The notes beneath the pieces were generated by a model. It was not told the DNA's origin, ran no database searches, and was given only the letters and a program-made list of their open reading frames with translations. Positions 33,235-63,900 of a stretch of 64,000 bases of DNA are shown here, piece by piece. The first letter of the stretch is position 1; each line of letters opens with the position of its first letter. This stretch comes from Dehalococcoidia bacterium. GTDB lineage: Bacteria > Chloroflexota > Dehalococcoidia > SHYB01. The position numbers and the translations under genes were made by a program. Location of the stretch: positions 1,366,374 through 1,430,373 of the forward strand of contig OZ253453.1 in NCBI GenBank assembly GCA_965261455.1, written 5' to 3'.

Positions 33235-33440
33235 AGTATACAGACCCGCGACACTCGGTCGGCGCCACCGAGGGGAGGCCTTTGCGCAACCCGCCTGTGC
33301 GCAAGCATGGGTGGGGCCGGGAGGTCTTGCCTCTTCTCCCGTGGGGAGAAGATTGAGATGAGGGGCACCCTCGCAACCGCCACGGGTTATCGAAGCCCGC
33401 CACCTTCACGGTCAGTCAGCCCGGTTACGCAAAAGCCTTG
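33235..33440. repeat. modular intergenic repeat (module M3, hairpin CTTCTCCC-gt-GGGGAGAAG)
   Basis: Copies at 47575-47640, 49440-49600, 49900-50010. Confidence 0.75.
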
Positions 33441-33442
33441 AG

Positions 33443-33451
33443 TGGTAGAAT
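33443..33451 (+). promoter_or_regulatory. extended -10 promoter TGGTAGAAT, 43 nt before ATG 33495
   Basis: TGn plus TAGAAT. The same element recurs at identical spacing before each tandem paralogue. Confidence 0.5.
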
Positions 33452-33494
33452 CCGGCGCAGGGCTTGGCTGGCGGCCCGATACGGGAGGGAAACT

Positions 33495-35112: not shown

Positions 35113-35114
35113 GG

Positions 35115-35123
35115 TGATAGAAT
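35115..35123 (+). promoter_or_regulatory. extended -10 promoter TGATAGAAT, 44 nt before ATG 35168
   Basis: Same position relative to ATG as the other three copies. Confidence 0.5.
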
Positions 35124-35167
35124 CCGCCGCAGTAGGGGGCCAACGGCCCCGATCGGAGGCGGAAGCC

Positions 35168-36655
35168 ATGGCGGCAACATCGAGCAAGTCGGCGGCGATT
35201 CGCGCAAAGCTAGACCACCCGATCATCGACTCCGACGGCCACCTCATCGAGGTAACGCCCGTCCTGCACGACTACATCCGCGCCGAGGGCGGCGAGAGCG
35301 TCCTCCAACGGGTCAAGAAGAACGCGGATTTCGCGCACTGGACGCAGCTCTCCGCCGACGAGCGGAGCGACGCGCGAACGACCGCCATCACCTGGTGGCT
35401 CGCTCCCACCAAGAACGGCCTCGACCGGGCCACCGCCATGATCCCCCGCCTCCTCGCCGAGCGTCTTGACGACCTGGGGCTGGACTTCTGCGCGCTCTAC
35501 CCCTCGGGGGGCTTGGGCTATCCCCGGCTGCCCGACGAAGAGCTTCGCCGGGTCTGCTGCCGCGCCTACAACAAGTACGTCGCCGACACCTACGGCCCCT
35601 ATTCGTCGCGCATGACGCCCGCGGCGCTGATCCCGCTGCACAACCCCGAAGAGGGCATCGAGGAGATGGAGTTCGCCGTGCGGGAGCTCGGCCTCAAGGT
35701 CGCTATGATCGCGGGCCACGTCCGGCGCCCTATCGGCAAGGTCCGACGCGAGCACCCCGGCGCCGTGGCGGAGTACGGCTCGTGGTACGACGTCTTCGGC
35801 GAGGACAGCGAGCACGACTACGACCCCTTCTGGGCCAAGTCCATCGAGCTTGGCATGCCCCTGGCCACGCACACCGGCGGCTTCGGCTTCACCAACAATT
35901 CCAACATCAACAACTTCATGCAGAACCACCTCGGCCACTTCGCCAACGCCGGCAACCTGCTCTGCAAGTCGCTCTTCTTCAGCGGCGTCACCCGCCGCCT
36001 CCCCAAGCTCCGCATGGCCTTCCTGGAGTGCGGCGCGGGATGGGCCGCCGACCTCTACGCCGGCATCATCGCCCGCTGGGAGAAACGAAACCCCGAGGCG
36101 CTGCAAAACGTCGACCCCCGGCACCTCGACGAGGACCGCATCATGGATCTCTTCGCCGCCTACGGCGACGAGAAGGCGGTGGGCAAGCTCGAAGAAATCA
36201 AGGAGTCGCTGCGCTCGCCGAGCATGTTCGCCACCCACAACGCGCCGGAGGAACTCAACGACTTCGCCCGCGCCGGTATCACCAAGCCCGAAGATGTCCG
36301 CGACCGCTTCATCCCCAACTTCTTCTTCGGTTGCGAGGCCGACGACCCCATGAACGCCGCCGCGTTCAACACCAAGATCACCCCCTTCGGCGCGAAGGTC
36401 GGCGCAATGCTCAGTTCCGACATCGGCCACTGGGACGTCCTCGACATGCGCGACGTCGTCGACGAGGCCTACGAACTGGTCGAGGACGGCCTCATGACCG
36501 GCGACGACTTCCGCGACTTCACCTTCAACAACCCCCTCCGCTTCTTCACCGACCTCAACCCCGCCTTCTTCGACGGCACCGCCATCGAGGACGCGGCCAA
36601 GGCGGCCCTCGCCCCTCCCTCCTCCAACCTCTCCCCCGCGGGGGGAGCACCTTAA
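35168..36655 (+). CDS. Amidohydro_2-superfamily protein, tandem paralogue 2 of 4
   Basis: About 85% identical to paralogue 1 by eye. ggaggcggaag RBS. Confidence 0.8.
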   Translation: MAATSSKSAAIRAKLDHPIIDSDGHLIEVTPVLHDYIRAEGGESVLQRVKKNADFAHWTQLSADERSDARTTAITWWLAPTKNGLDRATAMIPRLLAERLDDLGLDFCALYPSGGLGYPRLPDEELRRVCCRAYNKYVADTYGPYSSRMTPAALIPLHNPEEGIEEMEFAVRELGLKVAMIAGHVRRPIGKVRREHPGAVAEYGSWYDVFGEDSEHDYDPFWAKSIELGMPLATHTGGFGFTNNSNINNFMQNHLGHFANAGNLLCKSLFFSGVTRRLPKLRMAFLECGAGWAADLYAGIIARWEKRNPEALQNVDPRHLDEDRIMDLFAAYGDEKAVGKLEEIKESLRSPSMFATHNAPEELNDFARAGITKPEDVRDRFIPNFFFGCEADDPMNAAAFNTKITPFGAKVGAMLSSDIGHWDVLDMRDVVDEAYELVEDGLMTGDDFRDFTFNNPLRFFTDLNPAFFDGTAIEDAAKAALAPPSSNLSPAGGAP

Positions 36656-36764: not shown

Positions 36765-36765
36765 G

Positions 36766-36774
36766 TGGTAGAAT
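36766..36774 (+). promoter_or_regulatory. extended -10 promoter TGGTAGAAT, 44 nt before ATG 36819
   Basis: Conserved spacing. Confidence 0.5.
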
Positions 36775-36818
36775 CCGGCGCAGTACGGGGCCAACGGCCC
36801 CGATCGGAGGCGGAAGCC

Positions 36819-38303
36819 ATGGCGGCAACATCGAGCAAGTCGGCGGAGATTCGCGCGAAGCTGACGCACCCGATCATCGACTCGGACGGCCACCTCATCG
36901 AGGTGACGCCGGTGCTCTACGACTACATCCGCGCCGAGGGCGGCGAGCAGGTGCTGGAGCGGTTCAAGGCCCAGGGAGGGCCGCACTGGACGCAGGTATC
37001 GCTCGACCAGCGCCGCGACGCGCGGATGACCGCGAGCACCTGGTGGCTCGTCCCCACCAAGAACGGCCTCGACCGCGCCACGGCGATGATCCCCCGCCTT
37101 CTCGCCGAGCGCCTCGACGAGCTCGGTCTGGACTTCTGCGTGCTCTATCCCTCGACGGCGCTGCCCTTCCCGAGCCTCGCCGACGAGGAGCTCCGCCGCG
37201 TCTGCTGTCGGGCGTACAACAAGTACGCCGCCGAAATGTACGCCCCCTACGCGCGGCAGATGACTCCCGCGGCGCTGATCCCGATGCACACGCCCGAGGA
37301 GGGGATCGAGGAGCTGGAGTTCGCCTCGCGGGAGCTTGGCCTGAAGGTGGCCGCGATGGCGGGCTACGTCCGCCGGCCCATCAAGAAGTTGCAGCGCGAG
37401 TTCCCAGGGGCGTCGGGACAGTTCAGCGTCTGGCACGACGTCTACGGCGAGGACAGCGAGTACGACTACGACCCCTTCTGGGCCAAGGCCATCGAGCTTG
37501 GCATGCCGTTGTCGACGCATTCGGCGGGCTTCGGCTTCACCAACAACTCCAACATCAACAACTTCATGCAGAACCACCTCGGCCACTTCGCCAACGCCGC
37601 CAACGTGCTCTGCAAGTCGATGTTCTTTAGCGGCGTGACCCGCCGCTTCCCCGCGCTCCGCATGGCCTTCCTCGAGTGCGGTGCGGGCTGGGCCGCCGAC
37701 CTCTACGCCGGCATCATCGCCCGCTGGGAGAAGCGCAACCCCGAGACCCTGCAGGGCGTCGACCCGAGCCTCATGGACGAGGACCGGATCATGGAGCTCT
37801 TCGCGGCCTACGGCGACGCGCGCGCGGTGAGCAAGCTCGAAGAAATCAAGGAGTCGTTAGTCGGGACCGGAGTCCTCGCCGGGCGGAACGCGCCGGAAGA
37901 CCTCAACGACTTCTCCCGGTCCGGCGTAACCAAGCCGGAAGACATCCGCGACCAGTTCGTCCCCAACTTCTTCTTCGGCTGCGAGGCCGACGACCCCATG
38001 AACGCCATCGCGTTCGACTCCAAGATCGCTCCCCTCCGCGCGCGCGTCGGAGCCATGCTCAGCTCCGACATCGGCCACTGGGACGTCATCGACATGCGCG
38101 ACGTAGTCGAGGAAGCCTACGAGCTGGTGGAGGACGGCGTGATGACCGCCGACGACTTCCGCGACTTCACCTTCGCCAACCCCCTCCGCTTCTTCACCGA
38201 CCTCAACCCCGCCTTCTTCGACGGCACCGTCATCGAAGCCGAGGCCAAGGCGGCCCTCGCCCCTCCCTCCTCCAACCTCTCCCCCGCAGGGGGAGCACCT
38301 TAA
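36819..38303 (+). CDS. Amidohydro_2-superfamily protein, tandem paralogue 3 of 4
   Basis: MAATSSKSAEIRAKLTHPIIDSDGHLIEVTPV.... Confidence 0.8.
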   Translation: MAATSSKSAEIRAKLTHPIIDSDGHLIEVTPVLYDYIRAEGGEQVLERFKAQGGPHWTQVSLDQRRDARMTASTWWLVPTKNGLDRATAMIPRLLAERLDELGLDFCVLYPSTALPFPSLADEELRRVCCRAYNKYAAEMYAPYARQMTPAALIPMHTPEEGIEELEFASRELGLKVAAMAGYVRRPIKKLQREFPGASGQFSVWHDVYGEDSEYDYDPFWAKAIELGMPLSTHSAGFGFTNNSNINNFMQNHLGHFANAANVLCKSMFFSGVTRRFPALRMAFLECGAGWAADLYAGIIARWEKRNPETLQGVDPSLMDEDRIMELFAAYGDARAVSKLEEIKESLVGTGVLAGRNAPEDLNDFSRSGVTKPEDIRDQFVPNFFFGCEADDPMNAIAFDSKIAPLRARVGAMLSSDIGHWDVIDMRDVVEEAYELVEDGVMTADDFRDFTFANPLRFFTDLNPAFFDGTVIEAEAKAALAPPSSNLSPAGGAP

Positions 38304-38387: not shown

Positions 38388-38388
38388 G

Positions 38389-38397
38389 TGGTAGAAT
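38389..38397 (+). promoter_or_regulatory. extended -10 promoter TGGTAGAAT, 44 nt before ATG 38442
   Basis: Conserved spacing. Confidence 0.5.
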
Positions 38398-38441
38398 CCG
38401 GCGCAGTACGGGGCCAACGGCCCCGATCGGAGGCGGAAGCC

Positions 38442-39899
38442 ATGGCGGCGGCTTCGAGCAAATCGGCGGCGATTCGCGCAAAGCTGACGCATCCGATCAT
38501 CGATGCGGACGGCCACCTCATCGAGGTCACGCCGGTGCTCTACGACTATGTCCGCGCCGAGGGCGGCGAGGGAGTGGTCCGGCGGCTCAAGGCGGAGATT
38601 GAGCAGTCTCACTGGACGCGGCTCTCGCCCGGCGAACGGCGCGGCGCGCGGGTGCCCGCCATCACGTGGTGGCTTGTCCCCGCCAAGAACGGTCTCGACC
38701 GGGCGACGGCAATGATCCCCCGCCTTCTCGCCGAGCGTCTCGACGGTCTCGGTCTCGACTTCTGCGTCCTCTACCCCTCGCTAGGGCTGGACTTCCCCCA
38801 TCTGGCCGACGAGGAGCTCCGGCGGGTCTCCTGCCGGGCCTACAACAAGTACGTCGCCGAGATGTACGCCCCCTATGCGCGGCAAATGACGACGGCTGCG
38901 GTGATTCCGATGCACACCCCCGAAGAGGGGATCGAGGAGCTTGAGTTCGCCTCGCGGACGCTTGGCCTGAAGACCGCCATGATCGCGGGCCACGTCCACC
39001 GCCCCATCGGCGAGGCCCGGCGCGAGCATCTGGGGGCGATTGGGCAATACGGCCCTCAGCGCGGCTCGTGGTACGACACCTTCGGCGAGGACAGCGAGTA
39101 CGACTACGATCCCTTCTGGGCCAAGGCCGTCGAGCTAGGGATGCCTCTGGCGGCGCACTCGTCCGGTTTTGGGTTCACCAACAACTCCAACGTCAACAAT
39201 TTCATGCAGAACCACCTCGGCCACTTCGCCAATGCGGCCAACCTACTGTGCAAGTCGCTGTTCTTTAGTGGAGTAACCCATCGCTTCCCCGCGCTCCGCA
39301 TCGCCTTCCTGGAATGTGGAGCGGGTTGGGCCGCCGACCTCTACGCCGGCATCATCGCCCGCTGGGAGAAGCGCAACCCCGAGGCCCTGCAAGGCATCGA
39401 CCCTCGCCAGCTTGACGAGGACCGTGTCATGGAGCTTTTCGCGGCCTACGGCGACGAGAAGACCGCGGGCAGGGTCGAAGAGATCAAGGCGTCGCTTCGT
39501 TCGCCGAGCCTGTTCGCCGCGCAGAACGCGCCCGATGATCTCAACGACTTCTCCCGGTCCGGCATCACGAAGCCGGAGGACATCCACGACCGCTTCGTCC
39601 CCAACTTCTTCTTCGGCTGCGAGGCCGACGACCCCATGAACGCCGTCGCCTTCGACTCCAAGATCGCCCCGTTCGGCGCGCGCGTCGGCGCAATGCTCAG
39701 CTCCGACATCGGCCACTGGGACGTCATCGACATGCGTGACGTAGTCGAGGAAGCCTACGAGATGGTCGAGCACGGCCTCATGACCGCCGACGACTTCCGC
39801 GACTTCACCTTCGCCAACCCCCTCCGCTTCTTCACCGACCTCAACCCCGCCTTCTTCGACGGCACCGTCATCGAAGCCGAGGCCAAGGCCGCGCGGTAA
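38442..39899 (+). CDS. Amidohydro_2-superfamily protein, tandem paralogue 4 of 4 (lacks the repeat-encoded C-terminal tail)
   Basis: MAAASSKSAAIRAKLTHPIIDADGHLIEVTPV.... Ends ...AEAKAAR. Confidence 0.8.
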   Translation: MAAASSKSAAIRAKLTHPIIDADGHLIEVTPVLYDYVRAEGGEGVVRRLKAEIEQSHWTRLSPGERRGARVPAITWWLVPAKNGLDRATAMIPRLLAERLDGLGLDFCVLYPSLGLDFPHLADEELRRVSCRAYNKYVAEMYAPYARQMTTAAVIPMHTPEEGIEELEFASRTLGLKTAMIAGHVHRPIGEARREHLGAIGQYGPQRGSWYDTFGEDSEYDYDPFWAKAVELGMPLAAHSSGFGFTNNSNVNNFMQNHLGHFANAANLLCKSLFFSGVTHRFPALRIAFLECGAGWAADLYAGIIARWEKRNPEALQGIDPRQLDEDRVMELFAAYGDEKTAGRVEEIKASLRSPSLFAAQNAPDDLNDFSRSGITKPEDIHDRFVPNFFFGCEADDPMNAVAFDSKIAPFGARVGAMLSSDIGHWDVIDMRDVVEEAYEMVEHGLMTADDFRDFTFANPLRFFTDLNPAFFDGTVIEAEAKAAR

Positions 39900-40884: not shown

Positions 40885-41062
40885 GAAGTCTTTACTCCTC
40901 TCCCTCTGGAGACCCTTGCAAAACCGACTGGGGTCCTGGCGGGGGGAGCGGAGGTGGCATTCACTTAAACCTCTCCCCCTCTGGGGGAGACTGAGAGAGG
41001 GTGGGGGAGGCGGGGGCCGTGCGACCTTGCTGAAGCCCGCCCGTCGAGTTACGCAAAGGTCT
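40885..41062. repeat. modular intergenic hairpin repeat (M1+M2 variant)
   Basis: ctctccctctggagacccttgcaaaaccgactggggtcctggcggggggagcggaggtggcattcacttaaacctctccccctctgggggagactgagagaggg..., matching the 30661 copy. Confidence 0.8.
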
Positions 41063-42243: not shown

Positions 42244-42336
42244 CCGGAACGGAGGCGCGGCCCTTGGCGCAACTCTCACGGGACGTGAAGGTCGTGGAGT
42301 CGGGAGAATCTATACGGCAGACGGCGGCGGCGATAT

Positions 42337-43356
42337 CTAAACGGCTGGGGCGGCCCAGTCGGCCAAGGCCTGGAGATCATGCGCCCAGAAGAGTATCAAT
42401 CCTTGCTTTTGGGCGGCCTGGAGATTGTGCACTTTGTAGACGCCGCTCAACACCGCGACTGGTACGATCTGACGTTCGCCGAACTCACGGAGCCACACTT
42501 CGGCCTTCGCAGCCGCGTCGTTGTTCAGCCTCTTAACTGAGTTGGTTGACGAATTCGACACCTTGCACTCGATCGCCACCAGACGGCTGTCCCGCAGAGT
42601 CACGACAAAGTCCGCCTTTCGGCTCCCAAGCAGGCTTTCGCCACAGAACTCACCCGGTCTCGGCGCGTTCGACATCGTTGTGATCGTCCTCTGCTCGACC
42701 TGAGTGAATCCATTGGAAGAAAAAAGCTCCCCAACCTTCTTCTCCTGCGCTTCCTTCCCCTCGCTGCGCCTCTTGGTCGCCGCGCGGCTCGCGGCGATGA
42801 GCGCCGCCGACGCCAAGACCGCGCCTTCCCGCTCAGGCCCAGTTGGGCCGCGGCCCTCAGACACCCAAGCGAAACGGCGGCGATCTAGCGCCTGAAGCAC
42901 TACCTCGACGATTCGCTGTGCGAGGTCTGGGTCTTCGCGAAGACGCTTCGCGGAGAGAGAACCTTCTACGAGGACTTTCAAGTCGTCCACGGAAATCGGC
43001 GGGCCCGCGAGATAGCGGACCGCATCCAACAAGTGTTCGTCGGTGAGAACTTGGACAGCTTGCTCTTGAAGCTCCGCGAGGTCGTCCGTTGTCTCCAGCA
43101 GTGTTTTGATGTGCTTTTCGTACGCATCAAACGCTTGGAGGTAGCCCTCCAACGACTCGTCTAGGCGCTCCGTGCGGAATTGCTCTATGGCGAGGAGCCG
43201 GTCGCGCTCTAACTCCTCAGCACTCCAGCGGGGCGGGCTCTGCCGGCTAACCAACCGTAACAACTCCAGAAGCCAGCATCTCGGGAGCCGGAACGAGGAC
43301 TCGCTCCATCTCTTTCGGCTCGAACTTGACGAGCCCGCCGGCGTAGGTCCGTCCAT
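42337..43356 (-). CDS. type II restriction endonuclease candidate (PD-(D/E)xK fold), partner of adjacent MTase
   Basis: RKADFVVTLRDSRLVAIECKVSNSS fits D...(E/D)xK. Overlaps the 3' end of the MTase gene. AT-rich codons (tta, ata, aaa). Start uncertain (43374/43356, or TTG near 43240). Confidence 0.55.
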   Translation of the reverse strand: MDGPTPAGSSSSSRKRWSESSFRLPRCWLLELLRLVSRQSPPRWSAEELERDRLLAIEQFRTERLDESLEGYLQAFDAYEKHIKTLLETTDDLAELQEQAVQVLTDEHLLDAVRYLAGPPISVDDLKVLVEGSLSAKRLREDPDLAQRIVEVVLQALDRRRFAWVSEGRGPTGPEREGAVLASAALIAASRAATKRRSEGKEAQEKKVGELFSSNGFTQVEQRTITTMSNAPRPGEFCGESLLGSRKADFVVTLRDSRLVAIECKVSNSSTNSVKRLNNDAAAKAEVWLREFGERQIVPVAVLSGVYKVHNLQAAQKQGLILFWAHDLQALADWAAPAV

Positions 43357-44971
43357 CGCTGAGACGCACCTCATTCGACAGGTAGTCGCGGAGCGTTTCC
43401 AAGGCGAGCGGCGACAGGGGCTCCCTCGGATATATTCCGTGCGCGATGTTGAGAAGCCGCGCCCCGATGGGATTCAGGGCAAAGGCCGGCGGGCGCCTCG
43501 CCATATAGGTAGCGACGATCGGCGCGGGAGGGCGCAAGTTCACCGCCCACCAGCACTTCCGGTTCTTCGCCACGTAGCCTTCGTGAGCGCCCAAGAGTCG
43601 GGCAACGTGCAGGAATCGTTCGACGGACTTTCGGTCCTCTGTATCAAGGACATCAAGGCCCTCCGGCAGATCAATTACGTACCGGAGGCGCGCCGCATCC
43701 GTCAATACCCCCGACGAGTCGATGATTTCTCTGGCCCTCGTAACGGTGGGGGTGAGGACCCTCGCCGGAAGGCCCTGACTGTGGGCTCCCGCTATCCAAA
43801 CGCGGTTGCTCCCCGTCACAGACCCCCTATGTACACGGCACAACTCGCCAAGCTCGACAAAACCGGCGGGTGCCGCCCGGCGCTTCCCAGGCAGATTGCT
43901 CCAGCGCCTTTCAGTTGCTAGCTGCTCCCGGGGAACGGGATGGCCAGTCTCTAGGTTGCCAAGGTCGTCAATGGTGCCGACCTTTCGGAACCTCACATGC
44001 TCGGAAGGGCTCCCCACCTTGAACGTGGTAATGACGCCCGTTGTGGCTGCGTCGGGAAACGGCTGCGCGGCAGGGTCTACGATCGTGAGCGTCTGCGCGT
44101 GCAAAGACCTGACCAACAGGTCTCGCACGAGCCGTCCATAGTTGACGTCGAGCCACTCCGCCGCGGTAACGAATACGCCATAGTCGCCAGGCTGCGCTTT
44201 TAGTAACGTCGAGAGGAAGAAGTGTGCGTGCAGTCCAGCTAGCTGGCTCGCTCGGAAATCCCGCGCGTCTGCCTCGCGCGTAAGCCATTCCTTCCACTGC
44301 GAATCGATTAGGTGATGCCTAACGTACGGAGGGTTGCCGACAAACAACGTCGGCCCGTCGGCTAGAGGAATCTCAACGCTCCTGTAGTCCTCGACGAGGA
44401 CACTGCTTCGCTGCGAGAAGCCGGCGAGGGCCAGATTGGCGCGGGACACCATGGCGGCCAAGGGATCCACCTCGACGCCGACGAGGTCCGCCTTCGGGAA
44501 GGCGCTACCGGCGGCTAGCAGGAAGCGGCCGGACCCGGCGCCGACATCTACGACGCGATCCGGCGGGCCGTGTCGCCGCCCCCAAGCGATCATCGCTTCG
44601 ACAATCGGCCATGGCGTATAGGTGGCCCCCAACTTGCGGCGCTCGGCGCGGCTCCGGACGATAGCGAAGGCTGCACCCAATGGATCACCGCCCGCAAGCA
44701 CGCGGCGGCGCACTTCGTTCAACTCCGGTGCGGATGGCCGCCACTGCGAGGCAGCCAAGAACGGCGACTCATGCGCTCCGGCGGCAAGGGCGGCCGTTAT
44801 TGCTAGGCGCTCCTCGGTCGCCGCGCAACTCAGCGCGCTTTCCAGACCTTCCGAGGCCGACGCCTCAGCAGTGGACCTCCAGGATTCGAGCGGCGTAAGA
44901 AGGGGCGGACGAAAGACGCCAGTCGCCAAAGCCGAGCGATCGGATTCGGTTGCCGCTGTGAGCCTCGCCAT
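43247..44971 (-). CDS. gamma-class N6-adenine DNA methyltransferase (Eco57I/TaqI-like N6_Mtase with C-terminal target-recognition region)
   Basis: Motif I VVDVGAGSGRFLL and motif IV LFVGNPPYVRH in gamma order. 574 aa. Confidence 0.8.
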   Translation of the reverse strand: MARLTAATESDRSALATGVFRPPLLTPLESWRSTAEASASEGLESALSCAATEERLAITAALAAGAHESPFLAASQWRPSAPELNEVRRRVLAGGDPLGAAFAIVRSRAERRKLGATYTPWPIVEAMIAWGRRHGPPDRVVDVGAGSGRFLLAAGSAFPKADLVGVEVDPLAAMVSRANLALAGFSQRSSVLVEDYRSVEIPLADGPTLFVGNPPYVRHHLIDSQWKEWLTREADARDFRASQLAGLHAHFFLSTLLKAQPGDYGVFVTAAEWLDVNYGRLVRDLLVRSLHAQTLTIVDPAAQPFPDAATTGVITTFKVGSPSEHVRFRKVGTIDDLGNLETGHPVPREQLATERRWSNLPGKRRAAPAGFVELGELCRVHRGSVTGSNRVWIAGAHSQGLPARVLTPTVTRAREIIDSSGVLTDAARLRYVIDLPEGLDVLDTEDRKSVERFLHVARLLGAHEGYVAKNRKCWWAVNLRPPAPIVATYMARRPPAFALNPIGARLLNIAHGIYPREPLSPLALETLRDYLSNEVRLSDGRTYAGGLVKFEPKEMERVLVPAPEMLASGVVTVG

Positions 44972-45131
44972 TCTCGTTCAGCCCTGCTCGAACTTGATTG
45001 CCCCAGCTCTCGCAGCTTCTCATCGAGCCAAGGTTACGGCGCCAGCTTGCGAGAGCTGGGCCGCTTCGTCAAGGGCGACGTGTCAACGCCGTAACATGGT
45101 ACGCGGCGGTGTTACCCACCACCCCGCGCTA

Positions 45132-47506: not shown

Positions 47507-48255
47507 CATAATCCGGCAGCGGAAACCACGACGAACGCCGCCCTTCCCCTCCTGTCTCCTCTCTCCCTCTGGAGACCTTGCGCAACCCGCCCGCGGGCAA
47601 GCATGGGTGGGGCCGGGAGCTCTTGCCTCTTCTCCCGTGGGAGGCCTTTGCAAAACCGACTGGGGTTCTGGCGGGGGGAGCGGAGGTGGCATTCACTTAA
47701 ACCTCTCCCCCTCTGGAGACCTTGCAAAACCGACTGGGGTCCTGGCGGGGGGAGCGGGGGTGGCATTCACTTAAACCTCTCCCCCTCTGGAGACCTTTGC
47801 AAAACCGACTGGGGTCCTGGCGGGGGGAGCGGGGGTGGCATTCACTTAAACCTCTCCCTCACGGAGACCTTTGCAAAACCGACTGGGGTCCTGGCGGGGG
47901 GAGCGGGGGTGGCATTCACTTAAACCTCTCCCCCTCTGGAGACCTTTCCAAAACCGACTGGGGTCCTGGCGGGGGGAGCGGGGGTGGCATTCACTTAAAC
48001 CTCTCCCCCTCTGGGGGAGACTGAGAGAGGGCGGGGGGAGGCGGGGGCCGCGCGACCTTGCTGAAGCCCGCCCGCCGAGTTACGCAAAAGTCTCCTCTCG
48101 GGGAAACTGAAAGAAGGCACACGCCCCAGGCGCGTTGGAGGCGGGCGGGGGCGGCCAGCGGCGCGCCAAAGCCCATCGAAGCCCGCCCCCTTCCGCTCTC
48201 TCCCCCTCTGGAGGACACTGAGAGAGAGCGCCGCCGCGCCCGCCTCCAAGGCCGC
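47507..48255. repeat. composite repeat block: M3 fragment, then 75-bp direct tandem repeat x about 5 (47641-48001), then M2-type hairpin modules
   Basis: Unit ctctccccctctggagacctttgcaaaaccgactggggtcctggcggggggagcgggggtggcattcacttaaac repeated head-to-tail with 1-3 mismatches. No unique spacers between copies. Confidence 0.85.
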
Positions 48256-49374: not shown

Positions 49375-49384
49375 GCGAGGGCGC

Positions 49385-50010
49385 TGGAGCGCGGCGCGGC
49401 GGCGCTGGGGCGCGGCGGAGAGGTCTTGCCCCCTCTCCCGCTGGAGACCTTTGCGTAACCCCCCGCGGGCTCAAGCATGGGTGGGGCCGGCAGGTCTTGC
49501 CTCTTCTCCCCACGGGAGAAGATTGAGATGAGGGGCCCCCTCGCAACCACCACGGGTTAACGAAGTCCGCCACCCTCGCGGTCAGCCCCTCCGCCAACGC
49601 CAAGTCCTCGCCGAAGTGCACCTTCAACCTTTCCCCCTCTGGGGGAAACTGAAAGAGGGCACGCGCCCCAGGCGCGTCGGAGGCGGGCGGGGGGCGGCCA
49701 GCGGCGCGCCAAAGCCCATCGAAGCCCGCCCCCTTCCGCTCTCTCCCTCTGGAGACCTTTGCAAAACCGACTGGGGTCCTGGCGGGGGGAGCGGGGGTGG
49801 CATTCACTTAAACCTCTCCCCCTCTGGGGGAGACTGAGAGAGGGCGGGGGGAGGCGGGGGCCGCGCGACCTTGCTGAAACCCGCCCGCCGGTTACGCAAA
49901 GGTCTCCCCACGGGAGAAGATTGAGATGAGGGGCCCCCTCGCAACCACCACGGGTTATCGAAGCCCGCCACCTTCGCGGTCAGTCACCCCGGTTGCGCAA
50001 AGGCCTCCGC
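49385..50010. repeat. composite block of M1, M3, M2-variant and M3 modules
   Basis: Direct match to modules at 30661, 33235 and 47507-48255. Confidence 0.8.
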
Positions 50011-50194
50011 TGGGAGAGGGTTAGCATGACGGCGCAGCATGGCGGGGTTCGTCGAACGCCAAACCTCACGGCCCGACACTACGCCGAGCTCCTCCCAGGC
50101 TTAGAGGTGGGGTATGCTATCCAGCCGTAGAGGGCAACACGACAGAACAAGGTTGGGGCATTGAAGGAGATGGCAAAGCCAGAGGGACAGGTCA

Positions 50195-51208
50195 ATGTCA
50201 AGCAAGATAGAAGAGTGCATCATTTGGCCGGGGTCTTTCGCGATCGGAGAGCATTTGCCATCAACTGGAATTTATCGTGTGCCCTATTCTTTCCGAGCGG
50301 CTGGAGCATACGAGGTTGCAGACAATCCAAGCTTGATAGATGCACTCAAGGATCTAACCGATGAAGAACGGTCACGTCTGACTACCTGGCTTATTGATCA
50401 AAGGTCGCTGGGTGTTAGGCGTCCCATAGTAACCCAAGAAATCATCGATTACGCTAAGCATCGCCGCCCATTCCTGGTTCACGAGAGAGCCAATAGACTC
50501 TTGAGGTACCTTGTAGAACAAACGAACTCGATAGGTCAGGAAATAGAGATTGGCTGCGAAGGTTCTCGCAATAATTTTGGAGAGTGGCTTCCGTCTGATT
50601 CTCAAAGCCTCTGGAGCGCGACGGCTTGGTCTGAGTCAGTACAGTCGAGCGAAGTCAAACCCTTCGCCAAATATCTAGAGGAAAAGGGCTGGATTACATT
50701 TTCCCTCGCTGGCAGATGCGGACGATTGACTGTAACAGTCGACGGATACAGCCACATTGAAGATATCGCAACGAGAACTGACTCCGCACAGGCCTTCGTC
50801 GCCATGTGGTTTCACGACGAAATGAATGAGGCCTATAAGAAGGGTATCGAGCCAGGTATAGAAGCGGCGGGCTACAAAGCACTGAGAATCGATCAGAAAG
50901 AACACACGAATAAGATCGACGACGAGATCATTGCCGGAATTAGGCGCTCGCGGTTCTTGGTAGCCGACTTCACTCAAGGAGAAGACGGGGCACGAGGTGG
51001 TGTCTACTTTGAGGCAGGTTTCGCGTTTGGACTGAACATCCCCATCATCTACACTTGCCGAAAGGACGTGAAGGACAAACTGGCCTTCGATACCAGGCAA
51101 TACAACCACATCCTGTGGGAAACGCCCGAAGAACTGCGGGATGCCCTAACCAAGCGGATTGGCGCCGTGATCGAAGACGGCCCGCTGCTACAAAATGAGC
51201 TCCCATAG
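50195..51208 (+). CDS. two-domain protein: unrecognised N-terminal domain (about 190 aa) plus C-terminal TIR-like/SLOG (NDT-like Rossmannoid) domain; candidate defence or nucleotide-processing effector
   Basis: C-terminus FVAMWFHDEM...RFLVADFTQGEDGARGGVYFEAGFAFGLNIPIIYT matches the F-I-x-H-G-H ... a-R-x-N-V-x-F-E-x-G-y-f-x-G-x-L signature of TIR-like (DUF2321-type) / nucleoside 2-deoxyribosyltransferase-like domains. The gene is visibly AT-richer (about 50% GC, aga/ata/tta codons) than its flanks. Confidence 0.6.
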   Translation: MSSKIEECIIWPGSFAIGEHLPSTGIYRVPYSFRAAGAYEVADNPSLIDALKDLTDEERSRLTTWLIDQRSLGVRRPIVTQEIIDYAKHRRPFLVHERANRLLRYLVEQTNSIGQEIEIGCEGSRNNFGEWLPSDSQSLWSATAWSESVQSSEVKPFAKYLEEKGWITFSLAGRCGRLTVTVDGYSHIEDIATRTDSAQAFVAMWFHDEMNEAYKKGIEPGIEAAGYKALRIDQKEHTNKIDDEIIAGIRRSRFLVADFTQGEDGARGGVYFEAGFAFGLNIPIIYTCRKDVKDKLAFDTRQYNHILWETPEELRDALTKRIGAVIEDGPLLQNELP

Positions 51209-51394
51209 ACCCCCCCACGCGCCATCCGCCCCTTCCCCATCCCCACCCCCGCCCCCTACCATGTCCCCATGCGAAACCAGCCCATTGGCGCCGGCCGAGA
51301 CGGCCGTGGGCGCGCGAGCGCGAGAGAGCTCCTTCGGGAAGCTCCCGCGCGTAGGCGCGCCGAGCGCTGACCCGTCGGCGCCTTGAGCGAGTCG

Positions 51395-51420
51395 GACGCT
51401 GACCTCAGCGTCCGACTTGA
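51395..51420 (+). terminator. strong hairpin (GTCGGACGCTGA-cc-TCAGCGTCCGAC) downstream of the TIR-like gene
   Basis: 12-bp perfect stem. A second 9-bp hairpin sits at 51527-51551. Confidence 0.4.
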
Positions 51421-51710
51421 AGAACTTCAGCGTGGCCGGTCTCCTAGGGACCAACAAGGCCACGCCGGAGTTGCAGAGCGGAGTTTAGAGAGACGGCCCC
51501 CCGCGGCTATCCCCCCGCCGGGCCCGTGACCGCCACCGCGCGGCGGTCACTCCCCAAACTCAGCTGAAAAGAGTACGCGTTGGCCCCCCTATGCCTTCCG
51601 TGGCTCTTTCTCCTCTAGTGGACCGGCCTCATGTTGCCGCCGCCCTCCATACCACGTAACATCTGCCCATATCCGGCGAGGCCGCGTTCAGCGGCGCGAA
51701 AGGAAGCGTC

Positions 51711-52253
51711 ATGGCGAAGATCGAGCTGCTCGACCCTACCGGCGTCATGCCCAAGTTGGACAAGACCGACACCCCCACCCTCGACACCATCGACGGGAAG
51801 CGGATCGGCTTCCGCGTGGACTGGGCCAACTTCGATGTCTTCTGTGACGAGGTCGACGCCCACCTCAAGGAGAACTACGAGCCCCTCGAGGTCAAGCACT
51901 ACTACCCGAGCGGCCGGAGCCAGACCGACTCGGGCGCCCAGGAACTGGCCGACTTCGTAGAAAGCGTGGATGCCGTCGCCGTCGGCCTCGCGGCCTGAGG
52001 CTCCTGCACAGCGTGGAGTGTCCACGACACAATTGCCGTCAACGAGTTGGGTAAGCCGGCGGTCCTCATGGTGACCTCCGAGTTCGTCAAGCTGGCCGAG
52101 AGCCTGCTGCGCGCCCGCAACCGCAGCGACATCCCGATGGTCGTCCTGCCTCATCCCTTCGAGCCCCTGCCCAAGGACGACATCAAGGCGCTGGCCAAAG
52201 AGAAGTACGAGGCCGTGGCCAGGGCGCTGACCGACGGCGAGACGAGCGCTTAG
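51711..52253 (+). CDS. UGSC-motif protein with single in-frame TGA (candidate selenoprotein, 180 aa)
   Basis: ATG 51711 with aggaag RBS. The 51711-51998 and 52047-52253 track ORFs are one frame interrupted only by TGA 51996-51998, giving ...AVGLAA-U-GSCTAW.... Stem-loop CGTGGA-gtg-TCCACG at 52012-52026 lies 13 nt after the UGA. Confidence 0.55.
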
Positions 52254-52262
52254 GAGGCCCCG

Positions 52263-55186: not shown

Positions 55187-56488
55187 TTGGACCTCTCCTC
55201 ACTTCGCTTGACGCCGCCGGAGTCGATCCTGGGGCGCCACGTCTTCTACGGATGGTGGATCGTCACCGCCGTCTTCGGCCTGACCTCGATGGTATCGGGC
55301 TTCTACTTCCTCGGCTTCTCCGCCTTCGTGCTCCCCCTCTCTGAGACGTTCGACGTGGGGCGCGACAGCGTCGGGCTCCTCTTTGGCGTCTCAAGCTCCG
55401 TCGCCGCCGTCTTCGGGCTGGCGGCGGCGCGAATAAGTCCCCGCGTCATGACCTTCGCCGGCGTGCTCATGATGGGCGTCGGTTTCCTGCTCCTGGGGCG
55501 GGCGGAGTCGTTCCTGGCCTACGCCTTCATCCAAGCGCCGCTGGTGGCCACGGGCGGCTTCCTAATCGTGATGTACGGCTCGGGGACGATCATTAACAAC
55601 TGGTTCTCCAAGCGGCGCGGGCTCGCCTTCGCCATCGGGATGACGGGAGTGAGCTTCGGAGCGCTGCTGGTCAACCTGACGCAGTTCCTCATCGACGGCA
55701 TGGGGTGGCGCGACACGACGCTGGTGCTCGGCATCATCGTGCTCACCGCGGGGTTGCCCCTGGCGGCGATCATGCGAACGCGCCCCGAGGATGAGGGGCT
55801 GCTGCCTGACGGAGAGCAGCCGCGCCCCGGCGTCCAAGCCCCCGCAACGTCCGCCGCCGTGCCAGTCCTGCCTGCCGACAGCGGCCACACGGTGCGTCAG
55901 GCCCTGGCTACGCGGACGTTTTGGGTGATGAGCCTCGCGTTCATGGCGCGGAACTTCGTCACCACCGGCCTCGGCGGACACTTCATCCCCGCCATCGAAG
56001 ACAAGGGCTTCACCGCCGCTGCCGCCGCCGCGCTGCTGATCGCCTTCGCGGCGATGACCGTGCCCAGCCGGCTGACCTCCGGGTACCTCGGCGACCGTTG
56101 GCGGCGCAACATCATCGCGGGCGTTCTCATGGTGGTCATCGCGGGCTCGATGCTGATCATGATCTGGGCCCAGGCGCTGGCACTCATCATCGTCTTCGTG
56201 CTCCTCTACGGCGCCGCCTGGGGCGGCATCGGCGGCGCGATGTCGATGGCGCTCCGCGGCGAGTTCTTCGGACGGCGCGACTTCGCCGCCATCGCCAGCG
56301 TCACCACGCTCGTCATCGGGCTCGGCGAGATCTCCGGCCCTTTCGTGGCCGGGCGCATCTTCGAGGAGACCGGCTCCTACCGGCTGGCCTACGTCGCCTT
56401 CGCCGTGGCAGCCCTCATCTCCGCGATCGGCCTCCTCTCCCTGCGCCCGCCCCAGCGCGGTACGCCGACGGAACCGGTGACGGACTAG
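55187..56488 (+). CDS. MFS transporter
   Basis: 12-TM profile, 433 aa. TTG start assumed. Its last about 55 bp are duplicated at 57283-57345. Confidence 0.75.
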   Translation: MDLSSLRLTPPESILGRHVFYGWWIVTAVFGLTSMVSGFYFLGFSAFVLPLSETFDVGRDSVGLLFGVSSSVAAVFGLAAARISPRVMTFAGVLMMGVGFLLLGRAESFLAYAFIQAPLVATGGFLIVMYGSGTIINNWFSKRRGLAFAIGMTGVSFGALLVNLTQFLIDGMGWRDTTLVLGIIVLTAGLPLAAIMRTRPEDEGLLPDGEQPRPGVQAPATSAAVPVLPADSGHTVRQALATRTFWVMSLAFMARNFVTTGLGGHFIPAIEDKGFTAAAAAALLIAFAAMTVPSRLTSGYLGDRWRRNIIAGVLMVVIAGSMLIMIWAQALALIIVFVLLYGAAWGGIGGAMSMALRGEFFGRRDFAAIASVTTLVIGLGEISGPFVAGRIFEETGSYRLAYVAFAVAALISAIGLLSLRPPQRGTPTEPVTD

Positions 56489-56520
56489 CGCTGCCTAGAC
56501 ACGCCTTGCTGCTGTTACTA

Positions 56521-56540
56521 CTATTATCTAATAATAGAAT
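56521..56540 (+). promoter_or_regulatory. AT-rich palindromic operator (CTATTAT-cta-ATAATAG) overlapping a TAGAAT -10, upstream of hicB
   Basis: Perfect 7-bp inverted repeat in a locally AT-rich stretch, 15 nt before ATG 56555. Confidence 0.5.
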
Positions 56541-56554
56541 CGAGGGTTGGCGAG

Positions 56555-57055
56555 ATGAACTTCCAGATAGGCGGCAAGCGTTATGAGGTGGCCCGGGACG
56601 ACGTGATAAACGCCACGCGCGGGAGGACTCCCACGACGACCGACGGGCGTCACAAGTACTTCGTCCAGCTCCACGGTCGTCACTACCCCATCAAGCAGGT
56701 CGTCCAACTGGCCACCGGCTTGACGCCGCCCGAATTCACCTCGCAATACGCGCATGGGATTCTCACCGCGCTGGATTTCGACATCTCCGACCGTTCCTCA
56801 CCCGGTTCGGTGTCCGCCGATGACTCCAATGGAGAGCAATCGCTGAAGCTTCTCGTCGTATTCGAGACCGATGAGGACGGCTGGGAGGTTGCGAGCTGTC
56901 CGACACTCCCAGGGTGTCACAGCCAGGGCCGGACGAGAAGCGAAGCGCTGGCGAACATCCAAGAGGCCATCAGGGGCTACCTGGCGAGTATGCGCGAGCA
57001 CGGCGCCCCCCCGCCTTCCTCGTCCGAGTTCCAAGTCGTGGACGCGACCGCCTAG
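56555..57055 (+). CDS. hicB: HicB-family antitoxin with about 90-aa N-terminal extension
   Basis: C-terminal half LKLLVVFETDEDGWEVASCPTLPGCHSQGRTRSEALANIQEAIRGYL is HicB/UPF0150-like. The N-terminal half is unassigned. Confidence 0.7.
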   Translation: MNFQIGGKRYEVARDDVINATRGRTPTTTDGRHKYFVQLHGRHYPIKQVVQLATGLTPPEFTSQYAHGILTALDFDISDRSSPGSVSADDSNGEQSLKLLVVFETDEDGWEVASCPTLPGCHSQGRTRSEALANIQEAIRGYLASMREHGAPPPSSSEFQVVDATA

Positions 57056-57276
57056 TGGCCCGCTTGCCTCTGCTGTCGGGCGACGAGTTCGTCCGGGCCG
57101 TCGCCAAGATCGGATTCGCCCTCGACCGCACCGAGGGCTGCCACATGATCTTGCTAGGCCCGGCGGGACGAAGGCTCTCGGTCCCTCGTCACAAGGAGTT
57201 AGGCCGCGGCCTGTTGCGGGCGCTGATTCGCGACGCCGGCCTGACGAGGGAAGAGTTCCTGGACCTACTCCCCTGA
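57055..57276 (+). CDS. hicA: HicA-family mRNA-interferase toxin
   Basis: LSGDEFVRAVAKIGFALDRTEGCHMILLGPAGRRLSVPRHKELGRGLLRALIRDAGL. GTG overlaps the hicB stop by 1 nt. Confidence 0.75.
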   Translation: MARLPLLSGDEFVRAVAKIGFALDRTEGCHMILLGPAGRRLSVPRHKELGRGLLRALIRDAGLTREEFLDLLP

Positions 57277-57282
57277 ACCTTC

Positions 57283-57345
57283 GGGCACCTTCGCCATCGC
57301 CGCGCTCATCTCCGCCATCGGCCTCCTCTCCCTGCGCCCGCCGCG
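57283..57345 (+). repeat. direct duplicate of the MFS gene 3' end (matches about 56393-56450) flanking the hicBA cassette
   Basis: cttcgccatcgccgcgctcatctccgccatcggcctcctctccctgcgcccgcc vs cttcgccgtggcagccctcatctccgcgatcggcctcctctccctgcgcccgcc. Confidence 0.8.
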
Positions 57346-60962: not shown

Positions 60963-63900
60963 ATGGCGACGAGACGATCACTGGACGGAAGAAACAAGGA
61001 CTTGGGTTCAGGGACAGAACGACTAGAAACGGTCAACCGCGCGGTAGACCGGTGGAAAGAACAGTTGGTAGACGTCTCCGGACGCAACCGACTGCTGAAC
61101 TACCGCGACCTGCAGCGGGGGACGCTGGATCTAACGCCTCGCTGGAACGCGGGCGTCGATCCCCGCGTCCTAGACTCCCTGCTTGGCGGGGATACGGTCC
61201 GGCTGACCCGCCTTCTCCCGAACGAGGAGTCCCAGACCGACGCCCGCAAGCGGTTGACGGTGATCCAACGAAAGACCCAAGAGCACTTGGAAGAGAAGGG
61301 CATCGACACCCTGTTCGCCGCCGCGGGTCTGGCGTCGTGGGCGGTGGAAAGCGGGGCCACACCCAGGGCCCCGGTCTTGCTGTTGCCCCTCGCCGTGCAC
61401 CCCGAAGGCGCCGCGCGGCGGGATTTCACGATCGAGCTGTCCAGCGAGCCGCATCTCAATCCGGTGCTCGCGCATGTGCTCCGAACCCAACAAGGCATCG
61501 GTCCCGGAGTAGAGGAAGGCGGCCTTGACGACGACGTCAACGCGGCATTTTCCGAGATAACCCAGTTCGGCTTGGGTAAGCAGCGGGCGTCATCGGTTAC
61601 CGACGACATTCCCAAGTCCTATGCCGGAATAACTGACTTCTTGCGGGAATTAGAGGTTCAATGGTCGAAGGTCCAAGGCTTGAGCATCGAGCCCCGCTTG
61701 GTGGTGAGTAACTTCCGGTACGCCACCATGCCGATGGTGGCCGACCTCGAACGCAGCCGCGAAACCATTGCCGGCAACGACCTCCTCGCCGCTATCGCCG
61801 GCGTGGACGAAGCCCGCCGGGCCCTCGCCGACAGAATCCACGACCCCTCCCCCAATCGGCCCGATATCGACCCGCCCGAGTCGGAGTTCCTCGTGCTCGA
61901 CGCCGACTCAAGCCAGCACCGGGCGATCAATCGTGCCTTGGGCGGCGAGTCTGTGGTGATCTGGGGACCGCCGGGGACGGGAAAGTCGCAGACCATCGCG
62001 AACTTGATCGCCGCCCTCATCGCCCAAGGAAAACGCATTCTGTTTGTGGCCGAAAAGCGGGCCGCCATCGACATGGTGGTCGGACGCCTCCGGCGCGCGG
62101 GGCTGTCGGATCTCGTCCTCGACGTCCACGGAGGCGGCAAGTCGAAACGCGAGTTCGCCCAAAGCATGGCCGCCTCAATTCGCAGCATCGGATCGATTCC
62201 CGAGCCCGACCATGCCATCCTTCACCGCCAACTTTCGGAGCGCCGCAGCGAGCTCATTGCTCACAAGGACGCGCTTCACGAGCCTCTGTTCCCCTGGAAT
62301 GTAACCTTGTTCGACGTGCAGAATGGCTTAATCGGCGCCCCAGAAGCCGCCCAGACGAGTTTTCGGCTTCCGTCCGGCAAGGCACGAAAACTAGACAGGG
62401 AGAAGGCCGATCGGCTCAAAGAGCAAATAACGGAATGGGTCCGGCTAGAGGGTCCGTATGTGAGAACCCGCTATGCCGACTGGGCACGGCTCTCCGCAAC
62501 AACGCCAGAAGAAGCCCGCGACGCATTCGAGTTGGTCAGAGGCTTAGCCGACGATCTCCCTAACACGCAGCGGCGGCTGGCTGACGACGTTGGTGAGCTG
62601 GGTCTGGCTTGCCCCGGAACGGTAGCGGACTGGTCTGAGCTCGCGGAAGACCTATCGGTACTGTTCCCCAACATCAGGCGTCTGCTCGAATGCTTCAGCC
62701 CCGAGATTTACGACCGAAAACGCGCGGGCCAGTTGGTAGGACACCTGTCCGTCGACTTCTCCAAAGCACGCTGCTCGCTTTCCGCCACCGCCGACGAGGA
62801 AGTTCCCGCTCTAGGGCAATCGGTCAACTGGCCTGAGCTTGTTGACAAGTTGTCGGCATTGTTCCAAGACATTGAGCGCCTGCTCACGCGCTTCGGATTC
62901 GAGATTTACGACCGCGAACGCGCGGACCAGTTGGTAGGACACCCGTCCGCCGACTTCTCCAAGGTGCGCCGTTTGCTTCCCGTCGCCGACGAGGAAGGTT
63001 CTGTTCCAGGAGAATCGGTCAACTGGCCCAATCGAGCGGCCGAGCTATCGGCGTTGTTCGCGGACATTGCACGCTTGCTTGAACGTTTCGGAACCGACAT
63101 CTATGAACTCGACCACGCCGCCTTGTCGGCCGCGCTGGCGCCGTCCAAGAGTTGGCGGGGCCTGATTGCGGGCCTTCTCTCGAAGGACTACCGCGCCGCC
63201 AGAGACTCGGTGCGAGCCGTCCACCGGGCCCCGCAGAGCATCTCCGCCGCCGAAGCACTCAGCGCTGTCGAGGAAGCGGCGCGTCATCGTCTGGAATGGC
63301 GACGGCTGGGCGCGGCCCACGCCCTCAATGCTATTGAAGAAGCCACGCGACACCGTCTGGAATGGGAGCGGCTGGGCGCGGCCCACGCGCTTGACGCCGT
63401 CGAGGAGGCAGCACGCCACTGGCGCGAATGGGAACGCCTAGGCGCCAATGGCAACCCTCGAGTGTCACCGGACCTCGAAAACGTCCGGAAAGCCGTCGAT
63501 TCCCTGAGGGGGCGCCTCGCCAAGCTGCGGGACTTGCTGTCATGCAAAGACCTAACGCGCGAGCCTTACGGAGAGGTGGAGCAAAAGCTGCAACGCATGG
63601 CCTCCCAACAGAACGTGGCGGCGAACTTGCCGCGCATCCAGGCGCTGGAGCGCCAGTTCAAGAAGGCCGGTATCGACAAGATCGCCGCCGCCGTAGGAGG
63701 AGAAATCCTACCGGAGTACGCCGCCGAAGCCTTCGAATACGCCTGGCTGCGGACGATATGGGACGACAAGCTCTTCGATGATTCCAACTTGGCTAGCTTC
63801 ACGAGCGACGGGCACAATCGCCGAGAGGAGGCATTCGCCGGCCTCGACCGTCACCACTTGGAGATCACCCCTCAGCGGATCAAGCGGGCGGCCGCCGAAG

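Follow-up and report, generated by a model that had tools for sequence, protein, structure and literature searches.

A candidate stand-alone anti-phage protein from Dehalococcoidia that pairs a modelled winged-helix module with a divergent NDT-like domain

Introduction

Type II retrons (Retron-Eco1/Ec86 and Sen2) encode an effector of the nucleoside 2-deoxyribosyltransferase (NDT) clan that is combined with a winged helix in a polypeptide of about 300 amino acids (aa) (PMC7736814). The retron effector is kept silent until a phage cue arrives (PMC7736814; 10.1101/2023.08.16.553469), and the NDT-like effector of Retron-Eco1 depletes adenine derivatives (10.1101/2023.08.16.553469). Swarozyc (KpSwz) is a TIR-like NADase of the DUF4062 type, whose HTH/winged domain binds the phage portal, upon which NAD+ is hydrolysed (10.64898/2026.05.01.722283). 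The AbiJ-NTD + toxin architectures contain a non-catalytic N-terminal domain (NTD) that is swapped among HEPN (Abi_C), TIR, restriction endonuclease, kinase and NDT domains and is predicted to act as a viral sensor or toxin restraint (Anantharaman, Makarova, Burroughs, Koonin, Aravind 2013, PMC3710099). Here we describe a gene of 337 aa at 50195-51208 (+) in a 64,000-nt stretch of the genome of a Dehalococcoidia bacterium (GCA_965261455.1, contig OZ253453.1, positions 1,366,374 to 1,430,373; hereafter the window), which probably encodes a single-polypeptide, stand-alone abortive-infection anti-phage protein, composed of a sensor and an effector that would cleave N-glycosidic bonds.

The protein shares with the type II retron effectors the pairing of an NDT-clan domain with a winged helix, yet the order is inverted, as the NDT domain is N-terminal and the winged helix-turn-helix (wHTH) C-terminal in those effectors, whereas the NDT domain is C-terminal here. 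Moreover, sequence similarity to the solved Ec86 effector chains is undetectable, and the putative sensor lies inside the same polypeptide instead of in a complex of multicopy single-stranded DNA (msDNA) and reverse transcriptase. Like Swarozyc, it is a single-gene system of defence islands with an N-glycosidase of the TIR/NDT superfamily, a catalytic glutamate (here presumed) and an HTH/winged sensor; unlike Swarozyc, it matches neither DUF4062 nor any STIR-clan model, its catalytic domain groups with the NDT clan, and its sensor bears an additional β cap. Similar to the AbiJ-NTD + toxin architectures, its N-terminal module is fused to several toxin/effector domains, but the Pfam models AbiJ_NTD3, AbiJ_NTD4 and AbiJ_NTD5 matched none of 35 members carrying the module, and the NDT-fused AbiJ-NTD1, compared by its description (PMC3710099), has about 140 aa and is mostly α-helical, whereas the module is longer (about 190 aa) and combines a β cap with a wHTH. 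The TIR effectors of the cyclic-oligonucleotide-based anti-phage signalling system (CBASS), Pycsar and Thoeris (Cap12 TIR-STING, TIR-SAVED, PycTIR, ThsB) differ in that no cyclic-nucleotide sensor (STING, SAVED, SLOG) and no TIR Pfam match is found in this protein. Metabolic NDT-clan enzymes (nucleoside 2-deoxyribosyltransferase, the CMP hydrolases MilB/BlsM, and Rcl/DNPH1) differ as well, since the domain is here fused to a predicted sensor, mobile and associated with defence islands, and the family lies outside salvage or antibiotic-biosynthesis clusters.

Because the defining features of retrons, CBASS, Pycsar, Thoeris and DUF4062 proteins were sought and not found, we assign the protein to none of them. 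For type II retrons, no reverse transcriptase or msr/msd was present in the window, no reverse transcriptase is among the 25 commonest Pfam families of its relatives' neighbours (a census, over 76 species-level genomes, of the 150 genes nearest to the family member), an Rfam scan of 47-53 kb returned nothing, and the domain order is reversed. For CBASS, Pycsar and Thoeris, no conserved CD-NTase, cyclase or ThsA/ThsB partner emerged when flanking open reading frames (ORFs) were clustered across 93 loci, no cyclase is among those 25 families, and the protein has no signal-binding domain. The design is already known and its principle is not new; the variant is new.

Results

An N-terminal module joined to several kinds of effector

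The strongest evidence for the function of this protein comes from the partners of its N-terminal module (N-module; residues 1-194, 50195-50776, +). An exhaustive profile search with the module yielded 1,212 representatives of 50%-identity clusters, and 373 proteins were fetched for a domain scan: the NDT-like C-terminal domain was found in 288, 70 were fragments, and 15 had another C-terminal region. Nine of these 15 carried a TIR_2/TIR domain (one together with SEFIR), one a CAP12/Pycsar-type TIR domain (E 3e-39), one Abi_C, and one Schlafen-AlbA_2 with putAbiC; two of the remaining three tails had no Pfam match and the third was 65 residues long. Some paralogues that share the N-module do match TIR_2/TIR and PF10137. 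A shared non-catalytic N-terminal domain joined to differing C-terminal toxin/effector domains is what characterizes the Abi-NTD + toxin class, and this is the pattern seen here. The presence of a TIR NADase domain in the place of the NDT-like domain therefore points to the N-module as a sensor and to the C-terminal domain as an interchangeable immune effector. A preliminary description of the window, made from the sequence alone, had suggested a plausible single-gene sensor-effector, and the swapping of the module among TIR, SEFIR, Abi_C and Schlafen domains strengthens this suggestion.

The AlphaFold2 (AF2) model of the whole protein, built on 60 homologues, reached a pLDDT of 90.3, and the N-module modelled alone reached a pLDDT of 95.9 and a pTM of 0.89. 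This confident model predicts a small β module and a MarR/PadR-type winged helix. A four-stranded β cap (residues ~3-42) is followed by a helical linker with the conserved motifs 'ARLTTWLxDQR' and 'HERAxRLL', and then by the modelled wHTH (residues ~95-180, 50477-50734, +), which is composed of helices 95-108, 137-145 and 151-163 and a β-hairpin wing at 167-180. Within the wHTH lies an insert of variable length (residues ~109-136, 50519-50602, +, beginning with GCEGSRNNFGEW), which forms an indel region of the family alignment, being present in some homologues and absent in others; the allele of a close relative (locus L004) is 13 residues shorter there. No Pfam family was detected in the N-module of any of the 35 members, in line with the earlier remark that the N-terminal ~190 aa resemble nothing recognizable.

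A C-terminal domain distantly related to the NDT clan

The C-terminal part (50777-51208, +) is a Rossmannoid domain of the NDT clan, related to TIR, and a predicted N-glycosidase effector; it shows the flavodoxin-like fold of NDT enzymes. PF05014 (Nuc_deoxyrib_tr, nucleoside 2-deoxyribosyltransferase, NDT clan CL0498) matched residues 217-290 with 25.7 bits (E 1.4e-5). As the curated gathering score is 28.8 bits, a cut-off reached by just one of five tested homologues (P0097), the domain is, judged by this score, a distant NDT-clan relative and no bona fide member of the PF05014 family. The PADLOC model for the CBASS 'Effector TIR' (PDLC00733) matched residues 210-333 (E 2e-11), covering the effector part only, and PHROG 16139 aligned with residues 180-325 (E 2e-44). 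A Pfam scan at E <= 10 gave PF05014 alone, with none of the TIR-clan hidden Markov models (HMMs; PF13676, PF01582, PF08937, PF10137, DUF4062), and an NCBIfam scan of the protein gave no match. The PDB yielded no meaningful sequence match to the protein, to the profile of the full family or to that of the C-domain. The closest structural matches of the domain are MilB and Rcl/DNPH1, and its identity to metabolic NDT-clan enzymes is about 11-18%. MilB and Rcl/DNPH1 are N-glycosidases with hydroxymethylated pyrimidine nucleotides as their substrates.

The preliminary description had read this half as a TIR-like, NDT-like or SLOG domain on the basis of a sequence signature. The NDT and TIR part of that reading holds, given the PF05014 and PADLOC matches, but SLOG (SMF/DprA-LOG) was discarded, since neither its fold nor its HMM was the best match. 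Of the signature, the motifs 'FVAMWFHD' and 'ARGGVYFEAGFAFG' are present and near-invariant across the family, but the [DE]-x-x-x spacing had been given one position off. The motif D258-F...G-x-x-G-A-R-G-G-V-Y-[YF]-E273-A-G-F is invariant in 60 aligned sequences; Glu273 (GAG codon at 51011-51013, +, read from the sequence, within 'VY[YF]EAGFA') is conserved in all 60 of them, as are the upstream D243 and D258, and the protein keeps all 34 family-invariant residues. Glu273 would be equivalent to Glu98 of the NDT of L. leichmannii and to the catalytic glutamate of TIR domains, and is the presumed catalytic nucleophile. Because no sequence-level relative has a solved structure, we infer this equivalence from the motif and the Pfam match. 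The active sites of NDT enzymes are assembled across a dimer, and TIR enzymes require assembly.

Two halves with different evolutionary rates

Mean pairwise identity within the family is 42% in the N-half and 66% in the C-half. In some pairs the two values disagree strongly, in either direction (N 39% with C 90%; N 87% with C 62%), which indicates recombination between the halves. By these alignments the N-half evolves faster than the C-half and recombines independently of it.

The same contrast is seen between the window and L004, where a family member occupies the corresponding slot between flanks about 96-97% identical to the window. At the nucleotide level, the two alleles agree at about 45% of positions in the N-half and at 80-87% in the C-half, and identity is restored to about 97% roughly 200 bp downstream of the stop codon; the proteins are about 30% identical over residues 1-180 and about 90% identical over residues 241-320. 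In BLAST alignments, the repeat block at 49380-50017 and the 5' half of the gene have no DNA counterpart in L004. A sharp junction at the domain boundary, as BLAST had suggested, was rejected, because finer analysis resolved a gradient of identity, which is no clean half-gene swap, so that the gene as a whole is a divergent allele. At a second syntenic slot (P0059 and P0120) the flanks are about 80-83% identical, and the middle part of the N-half is unalignable. Separately, a 46-nt stretch of the window 9 kb upstream of the gene (40970-41015) is 87% identical to L004 7836-7879, just 5' of the L004 allele, and its sequence suggests that it may be a dispersed repeat.

A large, patchy and mobile family

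Whole-protein homologues form over 7,000 clusters at 90% identity, full-length homologues reach 50-59% identity, and relatives are encoded in at least 571 species-level reference genomes. The best 80 genomes are mostly metagenome-assembled genomes (MAGs) of Dehalococcoidia/Chloroflexota, with a patchy distribution over phyla at 42-54% identity that also takes in Latescibacterota, Acidobacteriota, Alpha- and Gammaproteobacteria, Opitutales, Rhodothermales, Binatia, Nitrospirales, Spirochaetia and Bdellovibrionales. All named family members are just 'hypothetical protein', the identical sequence is absent from a collection of 15 billion proteins, and we found no characterized member in the literature.

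Homologues are carried by a conjugative Bradyrhizobium plasmid, and some plasmid homologues of the C-terminal part bear the annotation 'nucleoside 2-deoxyribosyltransferase'. Others lie on 33 IMG/VR viral contigs (viral or prophage). A tblastn search against 50,697 GenBank phage genomes gave no match, despite the PHROG match of the C-domain, and BFVD showed similarity to phage NDT and CMP-hydrolase proteins at the level of the C-domain only. In eight other genomes (L001, L005-L007, L009, L011-L013; gene at 8001 to ~8960) the GC content of the gene is 7-15 points below that of the surrounding 17-kb locus (0.49-0.56 for the gene, 0.59-0.67 for the locus). Because these genomes share the deficit, low GC seems to be intrinsic to the family, beyond being a mark of recent arrival. 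Together, the patchy distribution over phyla, the conjugative plasmid, the viral or prophage contigs and the low GC indicate that the family is horizontally mobile.

The gene itself shows the same deviation. Its ORF is intact, and its ATG start is supported because the N-termini of homologues coincide with it in the family alignment (e.g., MSSEIDHCIIWPD). That it is AT-richer than its surroundings, with a switch in composition near its stop codon, was already visible to the preliminary description and is confirmed by windowed GC: 300-nt windows give 0.48-0.54 over the gene against 0.65-0.75 on both flanks, and values are back at 0.64-0.70 in windows beginning at or just before the stop codon. 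The bin 50001-51000 (GC 0.523) is the lowest of the 64 1-kb bins, the runner-up being 0.608, and the GC3 of the ORF is 0.55 compared with 0.80-0.97 in host ORFs selected for GC3.

Genomic neighbourhoods rich in restriction-modification and toxin-antitoxin genes

No partner gene is conserved in a majority of the 93 loci. In about 16 of them the gene is lodged inside a type I restriction-modification (R-M) operon, with hsdM/S on one side and hsdR on the other, and among the 150 nearest neighbours the commonest families are Methylase_S (HsdS, 8), Polβ-NTase (6), NTP_transf_2 (5), Type_ISP_C (4) and N6_Mtase (4), followed by UvrD-helicase, N6_N4_Mtase and DUF433 (3 each) and by Resolvase, AbiEii-like AAA_21 and ResIII (2 each). 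Metabolic families within the 25 listed count two or fewer each. PADLOC applied to the nearest neighbours concurs, with R-M and toxin-antitoxin (TA) families being the commonest. Individual loci have DarTG with a BglII R-M system and an insertion sequence (IS) nearby, DndB/HsdR/SMODS/BREX, an adjacent TIR_2 gene, or two DndB genes with methylases. Nucleoside-salvage operons did not occur among the loci examined, which are R-M, TA or defence neighbourhoods or isolated insertions. These data support the earlier proposal that homologues would co-localize with R-M and defence genes, and neither of the findings named beforehand as speaking against it, a C-domain devoid of NDT/TIR-type matches or a consistent setting in salvage operons, was obtained.

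At locus L001 (6158-8004, embedded in a type I R-M operon) the family gene has a 4-bp overlap with an upstream gene of 257 aa and of unknown family, ahead of which stands a gene for a Polβ-type nucleotidyltransferase. The three genes are found together in about 10 loci and, from their order, might form a co-operating module in the sub-lineage concerned.

In the window, the immediate neighbours are genes for alcohol dehydrogenase (ADH), amidohydrolases, a UGSC-family protein and a short-chain dehydrogenase/reductase (SDR). The R-M system said to lie about 5 kb away was found about 5.2 kb upstream, as a XamI-type restriction endonuclease (42337-43374, -) and an Eco57I-like methyltransferase (43247-44971, -). 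The region of this pair (42299-45127) is slightly lower in GC, and L004 has a block of CoA-transferase, thiolase, ChsH2 and SBP_bac_5 genes in that place, a second case of strain-specific replacement near the gene. The hicBA pair exists too (hicB 56555-57055, hicA ~56914-57276), at about 5.4 kb downstream instead of the ~10 kb first estimated, and the IS110 element said to accompany it was not among the ORFs tested. Both hic genes sit on an inserted segment of lower GC and about 840 bp in length (56452-57287), between a major facilitator superfamily (MFS) transporter gene and an MR_MLE gene, that is absent from L004.

Sequence features around the gene

Upstream of the ATG lies a unique leader of intermediate GC (50018-50194, +), in which a GAGGG Shine-Dalgarno-like motif can be read about 10 nt 5' of the start codon. 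A scan for sigma-70-like promoters upstream of the gene found none, a result that is uninformative for a non-proteobacterial host. The leader is abutted by a block of repeats resembling repetitive extragenic palindromic (REP) elements (49380-50017, repeat families D1-D7), which forms the left border of the variable segment. The preliminary description had such blocks and two strong hairpins bracketing the gene. The repeats are real, but they form two arrays (47546-48253 and 49380-50017) that flank a Zn-dependent ADH gene, and only the second abuts the leader. Both hairpins are real as well. The stronger one (51388-51419, +) lies in host-like DNA 180 nt 3' of the stop codon, with a 14-bp stem, -26.9 kcal/mol and z -6.0, and its stretch is conserved in L004 at 97% identity; the second (51526-51550) has a 9-bp stem and z -3.3. 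Neither is followed by a U-run.

The two REP-like arrays consist of 74-75-nt units with internal palindromes. L004 keeps just a 138-nt 3' remnant of the Zn-dependent ADH gene between them; this remnant and the flanking arrays suggest a repeat-mediated deletion or insertion of that gene.

The next gene downstream, of the UGSC family (51711-52256, +), contains an in-frame TGA (51996-51998). Because this codon falls exactly at the 'U' of U-G-S-C ('AVGLAA*GSCTAW'), the gene probably encodes a selenoprotein that naive translation splits into two ORFs; in the 60 nt past the TGA, a simple fold was no better than shuffled sequences, giving no structure like a selenocysteine insertion sequence (SECIS). 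Further upstream, four tandem paralogues of 503-513 aa (33438-34979, 35114-36655, 36765-38303 and 38388-39899, all +), the last of which matches Amidohydro_2, stand near three further Amidohydro_2 genes, which amounts to a strong local expansion of paralogues. A 186-aa ORF in a stretch of lower GC (61658-62218, -) resembles fragments of plasmid-annotated proteins with DUF4011/DUF3320 domains and may be the remnant of a large helicase-like gene. No tRNAs are encoded in the window.

Discussion

We propose a mechanism in which the N-module, that is, the β cap and the winged helix, would serve as an infection sensor that holds the enzyme silent. The module would detect a cue of phage origin, be it a protein or a feature of nucleic acid, and binding of this cue may free or oligomerize the C-terminal domain. 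The NDT-clan domain would then break, by means of Glu273, the N-glycosidic bond in a nucleotide that is abundant in the cell, possibly NAD+, ATP/dATP or (deoxy)nucleoside monophosphates ((d)NMPs), and the loss of nucleotides would starve the infected cell and the phage alike. Several observations weigh against this proposal. The modelled winged helix might merely bind DNA; fusions to alternative effectors are a minority, 12 of the 303 N-module proteins that are not fragments; the PF05014 score falls short of the Pfam gathering score; PADLOC matches nothing beyond the effector domain; and PDB searches offer no solved relative at the sequence level. The enrichment of R-M and TA genes was rated against general knowledge of how frequent R-M genes are rather than against a control set of random genes, and several loci, this window included, are isolated insertions amid metabolic genes with no adjoining defence gene. 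The defence role is a prediction for the family as a whole.

The fold and setting of the protein also allow it to be read as a DNA-directed glycosylase, acting in a manner similar to type IV restriction: the winged helix would bind phage DNA, possibly with modified bases, and the NDT-like domain would excise bases and leave abasic sites, with no depletion of soluble pools. We consider this unlikely. The predicted MarR-type wHTH is a fold typical of DNA binders, the best structural matches of the C-domain are MilB and Rcl/DNPH1, the gene often resides inside type I R-M operons, and NDT domains linked to Abi proteins have been proposed to attack DNA 'like ricin on RNA' (Anantharaman et al., PMC3710099). 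However, the same N-module also drives TIR, SEFIR, Abi_C (HEPN RNase) and Schlafen effectors with unrelated substrates, which a trigger sensor fits better; known NDT-clan enzymes use mononucleotides or nucleosides as substrates; the G-x-x-G-A-R-G-G loop ahead of Glu273 appears to resemble a phosphate-binding element for small nucleotides; and the analogous wHTH of Swarozyc binds a phage protein, not DNA (10.64898/2026.05.01.722283).

Mobility raises a different concern, namely that the gene is a selfish toxin module of the addiction type, or a passenger of mobile DNA in decay, that makes no net contribution to phage defence and whose neighbourhood reflects shared insertion hot spots. Its composition is foreign in every host examined, it is present on plasmids and prophage-like contigs and co-localizes with TA pairs, and several of its loci adjoin no defence genes. 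A decaying passenger would hardly remain intact with 34 of 34 family-invariant residues, nor persist in one slot in genomes with flanks diverged to about 80% identity; there is no cognate antitoxin, because no neighbour is conserved across the 93 loci, and the fast-evolving, recombining N-half points to selection by a changing external target. We thus regard this explanation as improbable. A housekeeping role, as a ligand-responsive transcription factor with an operator-binding winged helix or as a nucleotide-salvage or sanitizing enzyme, with the NDT-like domain sensing or processing a nucleoside, is very improbable: there is no conserved operon or neighbour to regulate in the 93 loci, the homologues examined are not set in salvage operons, the distribution over phyla is patchy with foreign composition, the N-module also occurs joined to toxin domains (TIR, Abi_C and Schlafen), and the allele is replaced between near-identical genomes. 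The modelled wHTH fold, the 'nucleoside 2-deoxyribosyltransferase' annotation of some plasmid homologues of the C-part, and the metabolic neighbours in this window are what speaks for it.

Returning to the proposed sensor-effector, a broader possibility, which we put forward tentatively and consider rather doubtful, is that the N-module is a hitherto unnamed and very widespread phage-sensing domain that arms at least five kinds of effector, the commonest of which, a divergent NDT-clan domain, has a chemistry undocumented in single-gene immunity. By analogy, this chemistry may act on deoxynucleotide pools by hydrolysis or base exchange, with phage-specific hydroxymethylated deoxynucleoside monophosphates among the substrates, a candidate suggested by the structural matches to MilB and DNPH1, or it may be base excision from DNA. 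Either would depart from the NAD+ depletion typical of TIR domains.

If correct, the proposal would enlarge the known set of single-gene abortive-infection systems by a large family of over 7,000 clusters at 90% identity (about 1,200 at 50%), which is especially common in Chloroflexota and in poorly studied lineages represented by MAGs. It would also offer a setting independent of retrons in which to ask what NDT-like immune effectors cleave, a matter unsettled even for Retron-Eco1. Finally, the N-module would be a new portable sensor domain, whose fusions to NDT-like, TIR, SEFIR, HEPN and Schlafen domains would provide a handle for the discovery of phage triggers.

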